Counted from the stretch's first letter, positions 3,861-60,867 are shown. The stretch is DNA of 64,000 bases from an uncultured archaeon (GCA_964473825.1 CAYYQL010000002.1:160001-224000); one strand, 5' to 3'. A program made the numbers and translations. The notes: generated by a model from the letters alone, not told the origin.

Positions 3861-3965
3861 TGGCGGGCGCGCCAGGATTCGAACCTGGGACATCTTGCTG
3901 GCTTCGGGCCGTCTACGAGAATGACCCACCGAAGGCAAGCACCTTATCCGCTAGATTACGCGCCC
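3861..3965 (-). tRNA. tRNA-Arg(TCG) with 29-nt intron at 37/38 (3900-3928), CCA encoded
   Basis: GGGCGCG/CGCGCCC acceptor stem, CTTGC/GCAAG anticodon stem, TTCGAAT T-loop; BHB with CTTC/GAAG central helix. Confidence 0.95.
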
Positions 3966-12214: not shown

Positions 12215-12379
12215 TGGTGCCGCAGGAGGGCACCTCGCACCATCACCAAGAAGTGATAATGATTCGATCCCTCGACTTCGAGATGCCTCATCAGGCGCAG
12301 TCTCAATGACCCCAATAGTTTCTTGGGAATTCCAAGAAGATTATGAGTCTCGCGCCCCACCAGGCTAGGCTACTGCGGC
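12215..12379 (-). tRNA. Elongator tRNA-Met(CAT) with two introns: 37/38 (12285-12341, 57 nt) and T-loop 59/60 (12232-12262, 31 nt)
   Basis: GCCGCAG/CTGCGGC acceptor stem, CGAGA/TCTCG anticodon stem, BHB CTCA/TGAG; second BHB in T-loop with CATTATCAC/GTGATGGTG helix; CCA encoded. Confidence 0.88.
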
Positions 12380-12519
12380 AGGTTAGAACTCATCTTGAAG
12401 TCTAGCAAGCAAGCACACCGGATTTCTCTAATTAAGGTTGTCCTCAAGTCAGAGAAACTCACTCCATTGAAGTGATTTTTGAATCGAACACGCTTGGTCT
12501 GAGATTGCTTTTGCCGCCG

Positions 12520-17852: not shown

Positions 17853-17972
17853 TGGTGCGGGAGGAGGGATTCGAACCCTCGGACTCCTTCGAGAGCGGAT
17901 GACTCATTCCTTGACCCCGTAGTTCATCAGATCTTAAGTCCGCCGCCTTTGACCGGGCTTGGCAACTCCCGC
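17853..17972 (-). tRNA. tRNA-Leu(TAA) with 32-nt intron at 37/38 (17901-17932)
   Basis: GCGGGAG/CTCCCGC acceptor stem, long variable arm, BHB CTTA/TGAG, CCA encoded. Confidence 0.93.
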
Positions 17973-18216: not shown

Positions 18217-18894
18217 CTAGTGACGCCGTGCGATTATATGGAATTCGTGCTTCGAATCCGATAGTACGAGTGCCTTGATATCCGAGAAGCCGATTTCAAC
18301 CAACTTTGAGTGTATCTGCTTAGCAGAATCCTGATGGAAGTCCATCTTGATGGCTAGGACGAGCCAACCAGCATCTTTCAGAAAACGAGCATATCTTTGT
18401 GCCAGCCGAAGTGTTCCGTCTGGTTTCGTGGTCACATCAATGAGCAATGTTTCAAGCTCGCCCTCAGAGCATACGGCTTTCGGGTCGATTGAAAATGCAT
18501 CACCAATTACGACAGAAATATTGTCGTATTGCTTGGCAATTGTAAGTAGATTCTCTGCAAAACTATCTGAAATCTCGATTCCAATGCAGTTCGCTCCAAT
18601 CTTTGAGCAATAGAGAAGAAAGCCCCCAGCTGAGCTTCCAATGTCTAGGACCATGTCCCCTTCTTGAATTATCCCCGACCCAAAGCTGTCATTGATTCGC
18701 CTGAGTTTCTCAAATCCGAGCGGATAGTCCAGATAATCCGAAAGGATTCGGACAGAATCGCTATCGTCTATGTCTGTTGATGGTTTGGCAGGTTGTCCAT
18801 TTACTAGTATATGACCGGAATTGATTCCTCTCTTTGCAGTCTGTCTGGACGAGAAATGACCCTCTTCTACCAACCATCGGTCAAGCCTTGTCAT
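18217..18894 (-). CDS. TlyA-like RNA methyltransferase (S4 + FtsJ-type SAM domain)
   Basis: MTRLDRWL...SRQTAK S4 domain; LDIGSSAGGF SAM motif. Confidence 0.85.
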   Translation of the reverse strand: MTRLDRWLVEEGHFSSRQTAKRGINSGHILVNGQPAKPSTDIDDSDSVRILSDYLDYPLGFEKLRRINDSFGSGIIQEGDMVLDIGSSAGGFLLYCSKIGANCIGIEISDSFAENLLTIAKQYDNISVVIGDAFSIDPKAVCSEGELETLLIDVTTKPDGTLRLAQRYARFLKDAGWLVLAIKMDFHQDSAKQIHSKLVEIGFSDIKALVLSDSKHEFHIIARRH

Positions 18895-19654
18895 TTCTCT
18901 TACTCCTTGCTTCGTCAGGAATGAAAAGGTGAATTGGAACACCCCGTAGCAGGGGGCCTATCTCAGTGATAATGCCGGTTGCATTTGTAGTTCTCTTACA
19001 TACCAGACAATACTCGTGGCGTCCTAGATCTTCGATTTGATAGATATCATCTTGATGGCCAGATTGCTGCAGAGCACCATGAATCATTGCTAGACTGGAA
19101 CCGAGAACTAGCAGTCTATCGTGATCATCAGAAAGCCAGGAGTTGAATCTCTCGATTGTGGAGTCAGCAAGAGTTGCCTCCAGTGTTCTATCATGGGGGT
19201 TCTTATCAGCGATGATGATTCTAACAGGGAGATGCTCAACCAATGTCAGAGCGTCGGCAATACCCCTCACAGAAGCTCTCTCCATATTGATCTGACCGCG
19301 TAGTCGATGTAGAGGCACGAGGGCATCGATGAAAGCCGGTGTGATGACTCCAATGTCTACGTAGACTCCATAGCCTACATGACCAATGTCGATGAGTTGA
19401 CCGGTGTATTCGCTTCCAATCTCAATCTCATCGAAAGTGTGAGTCTGGCCATATTCCATCTCTAGTACATTCTTTAGGAACTCTTTGTCCTCCCCAATAG
19501 TCTGACATGTCAGATGACCTCGTTCGTCAGAACCGACATTTTGTATCCGGACCTGAAGGCTCTGTGTTTTATCCTCAAGGTCGGCCCTGAAGTTGGAGAG
19601 AAGCCGATTCCTGTATGCGCCATAGATCTTTGTGAAAAGAACCAGTTCTTTCAA
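18881..19654 (-). CDS. DUF2110-family protein
   Basis: G.VGYGVYVDIG...DALVPLHRLR motif; typical position next to tfe. Confidence 0.75.
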   Translation of the reverse strand: MKELVLFTKIYGAYRNRLLSNFRADLEDKTQSLQVRIQNVGSDERGHLTCQTIGEDKEFLKNVLEMEYGQTHTFDEIEIGSEYTGQLIDIGHVGYGVYVDIGVITPAFIDALVPLHRLRGQINMERASVRGIADALTLVEHLPVRIIIADKNPHDRTLEATLADSTIERFNSWLSDDHDRLLVLGSSLAMIHGALQQSGHQDDIYQIEDLGRHEYCLVCKRTTNATGIITEIGPLLRGVPIHLFIPDEARSKRNDKA

Positions 19655-52315: not shown

Positions 52316-54028
52316 TCAACAGGCACGACTTGATGATTCAAGGCAAGAAACTGTCTGTTCCTGCAGGTGCTCTGTGGCTTCATGTGGTTCCATGAATCTC
52401 ATTGTCCCTATCCTTGCAACTAGATTCTCGTACATGAAATTGAAATCCTCTAACCCATCTTCCTCGCATCGCAACCAAACCGCCCCATCCTTAATCATTC
52501 TGTTCGGAAGATCCGCATTGGAATCGTTAGAGTATAGTATGTTGAGTCCTCGAAATTCAATGCAACCATCCTTTCTTCCTCTCCTGACCTCAACAATCTC
52601 GCTCACGTATCTGCGAGAATCTCCCGGGTTCGGTCTTCTCATTGTTACAATAAGGTCGAGCATCGCAAGGCTAGTATTGACAATATGGTGATTCACCCGG
52701 AATCTCGAAATCAAAGATGATGCAGAATCACTATGACAGGTATTAGCACATCTCAGTCCGGCAGACAGAGCATGAAATAGCGCATGACTATGTTCTTTCG
52801 TTTGAATCTCTCCGAGGATGACATAATCTGGGGAGCGGTGTAGGGATTTGATTATCTCCCGAGTCTTATCGGAAACCCCTTCCATCTCATCAAGAGGATC
52901 CACTTGAATCCTAGTTTGATGCTGATTCGGATGAACCCGACTTTCGATAGCATCTTCAATATAGATCTTCCTCCATACTGAAGGTGTTATCTGGTCTAGA
53001 GCGTTTAGTAGGGTAGACTTACCTGTTCCTGGTCCTCCTGTAATAACAATATTCTGGCGTAGACGCAATGCAAGGATAAGGAGAGCTGCCCCCTCAGCCG
53101 AGATTGTTTCATTATGAATCAGATGAAACAACGTCATTATCTCCCTTCTTGCTCTTCTTATCTGCATCTGAAAACCATCGGGACACAGGGGCATAACAGC
53201 CATCGAAACCCGGAGGTTTGCATCTAAGAAGCCCACTCTACTCTTGAAAGAAGGGTTTCTCCTGTCGAGGTGGTGATTACTCTCCAGCCTAGCAAGTGTC
53301 ACCATCGGCTTGATTGCGCTTCTTGGAAAAACCCAATCTGATTTGCACCGTCCCAGACGAGCATGATCGAAATAGACTTGAGAACCCGGGCTGTCAATGA
53401 ATATCTCCTCAATTTCGTCGTCTAGTAATAATGGAATTATTGGAAATAGTACAGTTGAGCTATGACTTGCAATTTGGGAAATAGTATCTCTCGTCGGTAT
53501 GCTTATCTCTGGCAGTGATTCTTCCAGTTCTTCACACACTTTGTGTTGCAGATATCTAACTCTCTGCGTCAAAGATTCTGTACAACGCAACAGGCCTCTA
53601 GAGAACTCTGGGATCCTACTTGTCATCTTATCTAAGAGAACACTTTCAAGGTTAGACCTGAGTTTGGGAAGTGCAAAATAACACATCTCATTCTCACAAC
53701 CCGCCTGTGTGAATATTGATACGTAAGGTCCTATAATATAGGCATCAATGACCCCATCTGTTTCCAAATTCTTTCCCATAGTATTGTCTATCCAGACCTG
53801 CTCCCAATCTCCAGAACACCAAGGCGGATTTGGTGGGACCGCGTTGTAGTCGGTAGGAATATACATGAAACCCCTCTCTCTCTCCACAATGATGGGCGTC
53901 AGCTGTTCAGCGCTTTCCCTAGCAAAAGCTAGTACAGAACACTTACCATTTCGACTATTATGACAGTTATCGCATCTTTCCGGCGAACACATCACCAGAT
54001 TCACATATTGTTTCGTCATGCTAATCAA
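52316..54028 (-). CDS. TadA/CpaF/VirB11-type secretion/pilus assembly ATPase
   Basis: DDEIEEIFID, GGPGTGKSTLL, IEDAIE, LHRSPDYVILGEI; Cys-rich N-terminus. Confidence 0.88.
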   Translation of the reverse strand: MISMTKQYVNLVMCSPERCDNCHNSRNGKCSVLAFARESAEQLTPIIVERERGFMYIPTDYNAVPPNPPWCSGDWEQVWIDNTMGKNLETDGVIDAYIIGPYVSIFTQAGCENEMCYFALPKLRSNLESVLLDKMTSRIPEFSRGLLRCTESLTQRVRYLQHKVCEELEESLPEISIPTRDTISQIASHSSTVLFPIIPLLLDDEIEEIFIDSPGSQVYFDHARLGRCKSDWVFPRSAIKPMVTLARLESNHHLDRRNPSFKSRVGFLDANLRVSMAVMPLCPDGFQMQIRRARREIMTLFHLIHNETISAEGAALLILALRLRQNIVITGGPGTGKSTLLNALDQITPSVWRKIYIEDAIESRVHPNQHQTRIQVDPLDEMEGVSDKTREIIKSLHRSPDYVILGEIQTKEHSHALFHALSAGLRCANTCHSDSASSLISRFRVNHHIVNTSLAMLDLIVTMRRPNPGDSRRYVSEIVEVRRGRKDGCIEFRGLNILYSNDSNADLPNRMIKDGAVWLRCEEDGLEDFNFMYENLVARIGTMRFMEPHEATEHLQEQTVSCLESSSRAC

Positions 54029-59354: not shown

Positions 59355-59452
59355 GCGGCCGTGGTCTAGTTTGGTTAGGACGGAAGCTTCCCAAGCTTCC
59401 AACCCGTGACGGTCGTATGACCGCGGGACTTCAAATCCCGGCGGCCGCACCA
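59355..59452 (+). tRNA. tRNA-Gly(CCC) with 21-nt intron at 53/54 (59409-59429)
   Basis: GCGGCCG/CGGCCGC acceptor stem, GAAGC-TTCCCAA-GCTTC arm; BHB CCCG-TGA-CGGTC / GACCG-CGGG-ACT; CCA encoded. Confidence 0.88.
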
Positions 59453-59496
59453 TATCTTTGGTCATGTTTAAGAACCCATTTCCAGAATAGGCCATT

Positions 59497-59570
59497 TGGC
59501 GAGTGATGAGTACAATGACCCCGATGAGTCAAGAAGACGATGATTTAGATCTTGAGTGACGAGCTCGCCA
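59497..59570 (+). ncRNA. Candidate box C/D guide sRNA for tRNA wobble (N34) 2'-O-methylation
   Basis: 8-bp terminal stem TGGCGAGT/GCTCGCCA; mutually compensated boxes C ATGAGTA with D ACGA and C' ATGATTT with D' AAGA; guides complementary to pre-tRNA-Met and pre-tRNA-Leu; TTTAAG about 25-30 nt upstream. Confidence 0.75.
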
Positions 59571-59667
59571 CCATTACTTTCGCTTACCTGTGCTCCTGGT
59601 GTACGATTAAGTGAACAGAGCGCAGAACGCTTTTAAGCATCTGCGTGACCTTCCATACTGGTCTGCA

Positions 59668-60867
59668 ATGTCACATGACTTCGTTGAAGACGAGCTGAGT
59701 CGACATAGTGTTTTCAAATCTGAACATTTCTTGTCAATCGATTATGTGCCAGAAGGCCTTCCTCATCGCGAAAAGGAGCTCCGAATGCTCGCTCAGACAT
59801 TCAAGACTCTCATCACTTCGCCTGGCCGAACAAGCATCAGACTCCTGATTGAGGGGCCCGTGGGCACGGGTAAGACAGCAGTGGCCAAGCGCTTCTCTGA
59901 GCAACTTGTACAAGCAGCCGATAGAAGAGACATAAGATTACACAAAGTTCACATCAATTGTCGTGTCAGTAAGAGTGTATATTTGGTGTACCTACGAATG
60001 CTTCGTGAGTTTAAACCTCGATTTCCAAAACGGGGCCACTCACCGCAGGAAATCCTTCAGATGCTTGTCGAGGTACTAGATAGGGAAGACAGGTATGTCC
60101 TCGTCATATTGGACGAACTAGACTATTTCATGAAGCAGCAGGGTGCGGACATTCTCTACGATCTGACTCGGTTAATGGATGACCGCTTGAACGCTCCTCA
60201 ACGAATTTCCATTATTGGCGTTGGTCGTCGAATTCCATTAGATAGTGATCTTCTTGATCAGAGTACCCGAAGCACTCTACAACGAAATATGCTACGATTT
60301 GACAAATACGACTTTTCCGCTCTTCTTGACATTCTAAGAGAACGAGTTTCCATGGCGTTTAAACCAGGTGCAATTATGAATGACACACTAGAATTGATAT
60401 GCAATATTGCATCTGAACGAGGCGATGCCCGATATGCAATCGAACTCCTGTGGCGTGCCGGCAAACAAGCAGACCGCGTTGAATCGGATGTGGTCATCCC
60501 TGACTATGCTCGCCAAGCAAAGGCCGATACTCACCCAGAACTCAGGAAAGAAGTCCTCACTACACTACCACTTCACAACAAACTGCTTCTTCTTGCTGCC
60601 ACTCGAAAACTGAAAGAGAATCGAGGGGCTTATGCAACTATAGGTGAAGTGGAAGAAATGTATGGTTCTATATGCGAGGAGTACGGGAAAGAACCCCGAG
60701 CACACACACAGGTGTGGGAGTGGGTTCAGGACCTGACTGCCCATGGTGTCATAGACACTCAACGTTCGGGTGCGGGTCAAAGGGGGCAGACCACAATGGT
60801 CGGCCTCTCAGATGTTCCAGCGCAAATGCTAGAACGCTTTCTAATTGAATTACTCGATAAGCGATAG
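59668..60867 (+). CDS. cdc6: Orc1/Cdc6 replication initiator
   Basis: LSIDYVPEGLPHRE, GPVGTGKT, VILDELD, GDARYAIELL, C-terminal wH with RGQT; start reassigned to MSHD. Confidence 0.95.
   Translation: MSHDFVEDELSRHSVFKSEHFLSIDYVPEGLPHREKELRMLAQTFKTLITSPGRTSIRLLIEGPVGTGKTAVAKRFSEQLVQAADRRDIRLHKVHINCRVSKSVYLVYLRMLREFKPRFPKRGHSPQEILQMLVEVLDREDRYVLVILDELDYFMKQQGADILYDLTRLMDDRLNAPQRISIIGVGRRIPLDSDLLDQSTRSTLQRNMLRFDKYDFSALLDILRERVSMAFKPGAIMNDTLELICNIASERGDARYAIELLWRAGKQADRVESDVVIPDYARQAKADTHPELRKEVLTTLPLHNKLLLLAATRKLKENRGAYATIGEVEEMYGSICEEYGKEPRAHTQVWEWVQDLTAHGVIDTQRSGAGQRGQTTMVGLSDVPAQMLERFLIELLDKR

Follow-up and report, generated by a model that had tools for sequence, protein, structure and literature searches.

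A 64,000-nucleotide (nt) stretch of DNA from an uncultured archaeon (GCA_964473825.1 CAYYQL010000002.1:160001-224000; hereafter the window), part of a 3.27-Mb metagenome-assembled genome (MAG) of the Thorarchaeota (Asgard archaea), carries an element of about 74 nt that, on comparative sequence evidence, is a genuine box C/D small RNA (sRNA) conserved across the Asgard archaea. The guide preceding its box D (the D guide) is complementary to the anticodon loops of tRNA-Leu(CAA) and tRNA-Leu(UAA), and the guide preceding its box D' (the D' guide) is complementary to a motif within the introns at position 37/38 of pre-tRNA-Leu(UAA) and elongator pre-tRNA-Met. The sRNA and the tRNA-Met intron have changed together in seven Asgard families. 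We found no paper describing pairing of an Asgard box C/D sRNA with tRNA introns. Among the explanations weighed below, we lean toward one in which the intron motif would be a docking site that aids D-guided methylation of the wobble nucleotide, a proposal for which the case is strong for tRNA-Leu(UAA) and speculative for tRNA-Met.

BLAST recovered the element from 22 of 25 genomes of the Thorarchaeota family (hereafter the family) at 74-100% identity, and in an alignment of 21 sRNA copies from the family (A1) invariant blocks alternate with variable ones. A covariance model built from this alignment (R1) and run on 151 sampled Asgard genomes returned exactly one full-length match in each of 87, including all 26 genomes of the family. 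The fold consists of a terminal stem and an internal hairpin, both predicted independently by RNAalifold, whose covariation scores were matched by none of 500 shuffles; 88% of cells were paired, compared with at most 49% in slid controls. The strand of the RNA could be assigned as plus because the series U.G/C-G/U-A at 59504:59563 fits only that strand as RNA. An earlier reading of this DNA (the original prediction) had placed the element, an upstream TTTAAG box and an 8-bp terminal stem at these same positions and had supposed that consensus searches would miss the RNA; the element and its stem proved to be conserved with covariation, and Rfam returned no family at the locus with an E value of 5 or better.

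The box assignments rest on invariant letters next to the covarying helices. Boxes C (AUGAGUA) and D (ACGA), described in the original prediction as degenerate but mutually compensated, are upheld by the invariant UGA at 59507-09 and GA at 59561-62: the GA at 59508-09 and that of box D, together with a 3-nt bulge and the 8-bp covarying stem, make up a terminal kink-turn (K-turn), in which positions 59510-11 pair variably with 59559-60. Box D reads NNGA within the family and CUGA in other Asgard lineages. The proposed box C' (ATGATTT in the DNA) likewise survived comparison, whereas the proposed box D', AAGA at 59531-34, falls in a hairpin loop that differs in every genus. We place box D' at 59524-27 instead, because the invariant UGA there and the (R)AUGA of box C' flank the covarying hairpin, giving a standard K-turn with sheared pairs G59542.A59527 and A59543.G59526 followed by U59544.U59525, a GAU bulge (59539-41) and the internal hairpin as its C stem. 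The same D' positions read CUGA in homologues of other Asgard families, and distant homologues carry the canonical series RAUGA, CUGA, RAUGA, CUGA at the assigned box positions. The spacers that result are 11 nt from box C to box D' (the D' guide) and 12 nt from box C' to box D (the D guide), as in archaeal sRNAs. An alternative parse that used GTGATGA (59503-09) with GTGA (56-59) was rejected, as its 5' letters (59503-06) vary and the closing stem would be lost. The same genome encodes fibrillarin (283 bits) and Nop5 (210 bits) in neighbouring genes on contig C17, and the RNA would be expected to assemble with L7Ae, Nop5 and fibrillarin into a ribonucleoprotein (RNP).

The D-guide half of the RNA is a guide of an expected kind. 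Its core, GAUCUUGAGU, is invariant phylum-wide in the 87 sampled Asgard matches. The original prediction had the D guide pairing over 12 nt across the exon/intron junction of pre-tRNA-Leu(UAA) with nucleotide 34 at D+5; both the extent and the register held, in that TAGATCTTGAGT (59546-57) pairs over 12 nt with 17939-17928, but the duplex contains two G.U pairs where one had been counted. In full it spans 12-13 nt at -16.6 kcal/mol. The accompanying guess that a Leu(CAA) tRNA would provide the perfect target was also right: with pre-tRNA-Leu(CAA) the guide forms 12 pairs (11 Watson-Crick and one G.U) at -17.5 kcal/mol, with C34 opposite G59554. Against the Leu targets the D guide scored z of about -4.6, none of 300 shuffled guides did as well, and the next-best tRNA was far behind. 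In all family genomes GGAUCUUGAGU pairs with ACUCAAGAUCC of tRNA-Leu(CAA) (nucleotides 31-41, C34 at D+5). Guide position 59547 is a G in most genera, fitting C41 of the mature tRNA, and an A in the window's genus, where it fits the fourth base of the intron, so that in this genus the precursors are the better match. The D guide would thereby give 2'-O-methylated C34 (Cm34) in tRNA-Leu(CAA) and 2'-O-methylated U34 in tRNA-Leu(UAA).

The D' guide has a conserved core, AUGACCCC, that is invariant in 21 of 21 aligned sRNAs, and other Asgard families carry UCUGACCC(C/U/A). The original prediction had noted that CAATGACCCC (59513-22) is complementary to the tRNA-Met intron, and the match to GGGGTCATTG at 12304-13 is indeed exact. 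Orthologues of this tRNA-Met gene were present in 28 family genomes, and the motif GGGGUCA occurred in 27 of the 28 introns, the exception being GGGGUUA, which still pairs through G.U. In a consensus fold of 20 Met introns GGGGUCA is unpaired and invariant between variable flanks, and it sits between a variable, covarying hairpin and a 3' segment that forms the bulge-helix-bulge (BHB) helix with C32-U36. The motif recurs in every one of the family's 21 Leu(UAA) genes that have an intron (GGGGUCA in 19, GGGUCA in one and GGGGUCC in one), whereas no Leu(CAA) intron carries it. With box D' at 59524-27, the D'+5 position is C59519 and faces the fourth G of the motif (window position 12310 in Met and 17915 in Leu(UAA)); the original prediction had put C34 of tRNA-Met at D'+5. 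The linker between the two targets is constrained in length. In Leu(UAA) the motif begins 9-12 nt past intron nucleotide 3; in Met, anticodon loop and motif are 10-13 nt apart in other Asgard families and are separated by a hairpin plus 5-11 free nt in Thorarchaeota. Genome-wide, the best tRNA matches of the D' guide in genome G000 were exactly the Met and Leu(UAA) introns. The tRNA-Met gene is of the elongator type; an initiator tRNA and an intron-less CAU tRNA occur elsewhere in the same genome. Its T-arm intron is ~30 nt long and CCA is encoded, and T-arm or other extra introns are present in some relatives and not in others.

Other potential targets of the D' guide were rejected. No conserved GGGGUCA target was found in the 16S and 23S rRNAs of five relatives (the MAG itself has no rRNA genes assembled), and rRNA was dismissed as a target on these grounds. 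In those relatives the 16S and 23S genes lie on separate contigs in four of the five searched and ~59 kb apart on one contig in the fifth, and the 16S genes of two relatives measure 2.3-2.4 kb, implying large insertions. The intron of tRNA-Arg(UCG) (window 3864-3965, minus strand) begins with GGGTCATT, which offers 8 nt of complementarity to the D' guide, but this sequence is missing even from a sister species of the genus, and in most relatives the intron itself is absent; we regard this match as chance and treat it as a negative control. Two other sites in the genome of the form ACTCATAA...GGGGTCA are not tRNAs, and a genome-wide fuzzy search for extended guide complements gave only scattered, coding-looking matches, which were not inspected singly. 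A third exact copy of CAATGACCCC lies at 53746-53755 (plus strand) of the window, making three copies in 64 kb where ~0.1 would be expected; its surroundings resemble neither an sRNA nor a tRNA.

Outside the family, pairing was assessed by comparing each genome's own sRNA with its own tRNA-Met intron. In the Thorarchaeota family the guide AUGACCCC faces the Met intron motif GGGGUCAU (8-11 bp); in families f19, f3, f13 and f7 the guide UCUGACCCC faces GGGGUCAGA (9-11 bp); in genome G159 the guide CUGACCCAA faces UUGGGUCAGA (10 bp); and in genome G112 a guide unrelated in sequence, CAGGGCCUU, faces AAGGCCCU (8 bp). Compensatory changes have thus retained the pairing of the D' guide with the Met intron across seven Asgard families, the covariation that the original prediction had proposed to look for; pairing with the Leu(UAA) intron was found in Thorarchaeota. 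We take the Met intron match to be a real, co-evolving interaction, and, as the original prediction supposed, the intron probably has a function. One genome (G056:C356:8425-8642) contains two elongator tRNA-Met genes ~190 nt apart, both with the motif GGGGTCAGA, which pairs with that genome's own sRNA. Coordinates of all features are collected in Table 1.

Table 1. Positions of the sRNA, its parts and its proposed tRNA targets (window coordinates unless a contig is named)
Feature	Position	Strand	Remarks
sRNA element	59497-59570	+	~74 nt; letters as placed in the original prediction
TATA-like box TTTAAG	59467-59472	+	~25 nt before sRNA 5' end
Terminal stem, 8 bp	59497-59504 with 59563-59570	+	98% of cells paired; GC-to-AU compensatory changes
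Box C AUGAGUA	59506-59512	+	UGA 59507-09 invariant; K-turn G.A pairs via G59508-A59509
D' guide	59513-59523	+	conserved core at 59515-22; D'+5 = C59519
Box D' AUGA	59524-59527	+	UGA 59525-27 invariant; directly 5' of covarying hairpin, opposite box C'
Internal hairpin, C stem of C'/D' K-turn	59528-59538 (59528-31 with 59535-38)	+	GUC/GAC stem; 4 of 4 pairs covary; 89% of cells paired
Box C' AUGAUUU	59540-59546	+	(R)AUGA kept in family and phylum
D guide	59546-59558	+	core GAUCUUGAGU; D+5 = G59554
Box D ACGA	59559-59562	+	GA 59561-62 invariant; terminal stem directly after
Elongator tRNA-Met(CAU) gene	12215-12385	-	57-nt intron at 37/38 and second intron in T arm; C34 = 12345
Met intron motif UGGGGUCAUUG	12304-12314	-	D'-guide target; 11 bp including one G.U; -19.6 kcal/mol
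tRNA-Leu(UAA) gene	17853-17972	-	32-nt intron at 37/38; U34 = 17936
D-guide target ACUUAAG/AUCUG (slash, junction)	17928-17939	-	spans exon/intron junction; U34.G59554 wobble
Leu(UAA) intron motif CGGGGUCA	17912-17919	-	second D'-guide target; 8 nt past D-guide target; 8 Watson-Crick bp; -15.7 kcal/mol
Pre-tRNA-Leu(CAA) gene	G000 contig C30:21734-21847		outside the window

These observations can be combined in a model in which the RNP would contain two true K-turns, the terminal C/D turn closed by the 8-bp stem and the internal C'/D' turn closed by the small hairpin. The D guide would pair over 12 nt with the anticodon loops of tRNA-Leu(CAA) and tRNA-Leu(UAA), placing nucleotide 34 at D+5, and the D' guide, which appears to be aimed at no mature RNA, would form 8-11 bp with the single-stranded motif in the 37/38 introns of pre-tRNA-Leu(UAA) and pre-tRNA-Met, located ~9-13 unpaired nt downstream of the anticodon loop. 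One precursor molecule could then lie antiparallel across both guides, on Leu(UAA) with a linker of 8-12 nt bridging the compact C'/D' K-turn, and the same layout would apply to pre-tRNA-Met. Docking of this kind would hold on the RNP those precursors that match the D guide poorly, giving the fibrillarin on the D side access to nucleotide 34. Leu(UAA), which forms a G.U at the target position, would be one of them, and Met, with 5+4 bp around two mismatches, possibly another. We prefer docking because Leu(UAA) offers a single sensible modification site, U34 facing the D guide, and this is the position of the G.U. That the Met precursor is held in such a way that the D guide reaches C34 is a tentative suggestion: the Met loop, ACUCAUAAUC, departs from the Leu target at just two positions, 36 and 37, and the proposal is made by analogy.

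Several observations weigh against the docking model or limit its reach. The D guide forms no contiguous duplex with the tRNA-Met anticodon loop, and its broken pairing (-9.8 kcal/mol, z of -0.2) is no better than that of shuffled guides, so any action on C34 of tRNA-Met would rest on analogy with Leu(UAA). Applied to the D' site, the N+5 rule predicts a methylated intron G, which fits an ordinary catalytic D' guide equally well. In Thorarchaeota, boxes C (AUGANNN) and D (NNGA) are degenerate, and their binding of L7Ae is a prediction. Within the family, covariation of the duplex flanks was weak (permutation p of 0.12 for Met and 0.03 for Leu), and the phylum-level changes therefore carry the argument. 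No matching tRNA-Met intron was found by pattern search in several other sRNA-bearing Asgard families (genomes G068, G083, G085, G094, G029, G098 and others); a search for the complement of the f16 guide gave matches only in coding-looking sequence, and BLAST with the Thorarchaeota tRNA-Met gene was too insensitive to be used outside the family. Finally, some Thorarchaeota genera have Leu(UAA) genes that lack a 37/38 intron, so that docking is not indispensable.

Of the explanations that compete with docking, the one that fares best is that the D' guide is an ordinary catalytic guide which 2'-O-methylates the intron at the fourth G of GGGGUCA, independently of the D guide; such a modification could lend stability to the excised intron, which is often circularised, could mark it, or could tune cleavage. 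The duplex of 8-11 bp lies directly next to a well-formed D' K-turn, the spacer is 11 nt long and N+5 is always a paired G, as the standard rule predicts. However, motif and anticodon loop are close together, at a constrained spacing, and the motif is confined to precursors with a loop resembling the target of the D guide, being absent from other intron-bearing tRNAs; together these facts point to cooperation with the D guide. We know of no role for a methylated tRNA intron. Intron methylation by an independent guide is compatible with docking, and as an explanation in its own right we consider it unlikely.

A second proposal retains the contact between the two guides and the precursor but gives it a different purpose: the RNP would be mainly an RNA chaperone or timer that opens the BHB fold, so that splicing is held back or put in order with modification of the anticodon loop, and the D' pairing would not in itself make methylation more efficient. 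The D-guide target overlaps C32-A35, the central BHB helix partners of the 3' end of the intron, so that sRNA binding and endonuclease recognition would be mutually exclusive, and a chaperone role has been proposed for archaeal dual guides whose target sites are close together (Lui 2018, as cited in PMC7994747). Yet Leu(CAA) precursors share the BHB conflict and carry no motif, and we judge a role mainly in folding or timing to be improbable.

The original prediction had used the same intron complementarity in another manner, joining 59524-30, on G30-U36 of pre-tRNA-Met, to 59513-22, on the intron, as one long, split D' guide upstream of AAGA that would loop out 29 nt and direct methylation of C34 of tRNA-Met. 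Both complementarities are exact in this genome, and no separate tRNA-Met guide was found, the absence of Rfam matches to sR-tMet (RF02163) and sR49 (RF01303) in the genome being a weak negative and a genome-wide fuzzy search having given only scattered, coding-looking matches that were not inspected singly. The split guide is nevertheless contradicted by a box D' at 59524-27, with its invariant UGA that reads CUGA in other lineages, followed by the hairpin of 59528-30 with 59536-38, which covaries at every pair and leaves AAGA in its variable loop. The match of ATGAGTC (59524-30) to the anticodon arm, although an exact complement here, is best seen as a by-product of the D' box and the hairpin stem, since the K-turn dictates UGA, the stem is closed by G59528 and UC happens to form the stem in this genus. 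It shrinks to 3-5 bp in Thorarchaeota members with GCC/GGC, AUC/GAU or GAAUU/AAUUC stems, in which the tRNA is unchanged, and in other Asgard families the segment reads CUGACC or similar and cannot pair with CUCAU, yet pairing with the intron is retained there. The split guide would also leave the same motif in the Leu(UAA) introns unexplained, and we regard it as very improbable. Least credible of all is that the intron complementarity is incidental and the D' guide is an orphan or serves another RNA, be it rRNA or a different tRNA, for although one guide without a target is reported for many archaeal sRNAs that act on tRNAs (PMC7994747) and some Asgard families yielded no matching intron, guide and intron co-vary in seven families, including the wholesale replacement in G112, the rRNAs of relatives hold no conserved match and the best tRNA matches in G000 are precisely the two introns.

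The locus itself is compatible with an independent gene. The sRNA is flanked on one side by an intron-bearing tRNA-Gly gene (59355-59449) and on the other by cdc6, identified by its Cdc6 domains in Pfam and probably starting at the ATG at 59668. In the search of relatives that the original prediction called for, 42 of 46 public Thorarchaeota loci proved to have the sRNA upstream of cdc6, at a distance of 52-114 nt. A TTTAAG or TTAAGG box recurs at the same offset in most members of the family alignment, and in 33 of 42 Thorarchaeota loci the 45 nt preceding the sRNA contain a TT[TA]A[AG] box; the box would be a promoter element, and the sRNA would be transcribed independently as a small RNA. 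Directly 3' of the sRNA, at window 59575-59590 (plus strand), a conserved block, (A/T)TACTTTCGG..ACCTC, is present in nearly all family members and could be a terminator, a processing signal or a control element of cdc6 or the origin. All tRNAs in the window carry introns, and ARAGORN in its default mode reported no tRNA in the window; they were located with Rfam and with ARAGORN allowing introns. Adjoining the tRNA-Val and tRNA-Leu(UAA) genes, window 18217-18942 (minus strand) encodes a 241-aa protein with an S4 domain and an FtsJ-like or fibrillarin-like methyltransferase domain, the architecture of a TlyA-like ribose methyltransferase. At window 53110-53202 (minus strand) there is a weak Rfam match to the box C/D family SNORD35 (22.6 bits, E of 1.5, under the gathering score).

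Known systems resemble the Asgard RNA in one half or the other. The D-guide core, GAUCUUGAGU, recurs in the same register, with C34 at D+5, in Pyrococcus abyssi sR47, for which methylation of C34 of tRNA-Leu(CAA) was demonstrated in vitro together with L7Ae, Nop5 and fibrillarin (PMC3413156), and the Asgard core is identical to the sR47 target oligonucleotide of that study. Searched with Rfam, the Asgard RNA showed no homology with sR47 beyond the guide, which is dictated by the shared target and may reflect convergence. The Asgard RNA differs in having a hairpin-closed K-turn instead of a K-loop at C'/D', in its D' guide, which is tied to tRNA introns, and in the degenerate boxes of Thorarchaeota. 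In Pyrococcus, separate guides serve nucleotide 34 of Leu(CAA), Leu(UAA), Met and Trp, and tRNA-targeting sRNAs usually have one guide that lacks a target (PMC7994747). The encounter of a box C/D sRNA with unspliced elongator pre-tRNA-Met is shared with Haloferax volcanii sR-tMet (RF02163) and Pyrococcus sR49 (RF01303). Haloarchaeal sR-tMet acts on intron-containing pre-tRNA-Met, so that the intron plays a part in recognition (Joardar et al. 2011, as cited in PMC4033218; Grosjean 2008, PMC2584109). In those RNAs there is one contiguous anticodon-loop duplex with C34 at N+5, whereas the Asgard D' duplex falls entirely inside the intron, 10-27 nt downstream, with an intron G at N+5.

In mechanism, docking has its closest precedent in eukaryotic box C/D snoRNAs, in which a second complementarity near the methylation site helps the guide (van Nues et al. 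2011; PMC3116282). As described there, the extra pairing extends the same guide and acts on rRNA, whereas the Asgard pairing would employ a whole second guide with its own K-turn on a removable tRNA intron. The euryarchaeal pre-tRNA-Trp intron, which encodes a box C/D guide for Cm34 and Um39 (PMC7994747), is a further case in which a tRNA intron serves RNA-guided anticodon-loop methylation before splicing; there the intron is the guide, whereas in Asgard archaea the intron would be the target of a guide encoded by a free-standing gene. Human SNORD97/SCARNA97, which directs Cm34 of elongator tRNA-Met (PMC6601510), likewise brings a box C/D RNP to a tRNA wobble base, in a lineage related to the Asgard archaea. 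These human RNAs are direct anticodon-loop guides that involve no intron, and the comparison is one of targets, C34 methylation of Asgard tRNA-Met being a prediction.

Why archaeal and eukaryotic tRNAs retain introns is an old question with few known answers, namely that the intron is needed for modification or that it encodes a guide. That a guide arm and an intron motif track each other phylum-wide is direct evolutionary evidence that the modification machinery reads the intron, and it suggests that the 'orphan' second guides of tRNA-targeting sRNAs be viewed anew. Going further, it is possible, though we put this forward with reserve, that Asgard pre-tRNA-Met and pre-tRNA-Leu(UAA) have retained their 37/38 introns as a landing pad for the second guide, by which a D guide perfect only for Leu(CAA) would also methylate imperfectly matched tRNAs, giving Cm34 in tRNA-Met among them. 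If true, this would be a modification circuit, guided by RNA and dependent on introns, in the archaea most closely related to eukaryotes, and eukaryotes themselves have both intron-dependent tRNA modification and snoRNA-guided Cm34 of tRNA-Met.

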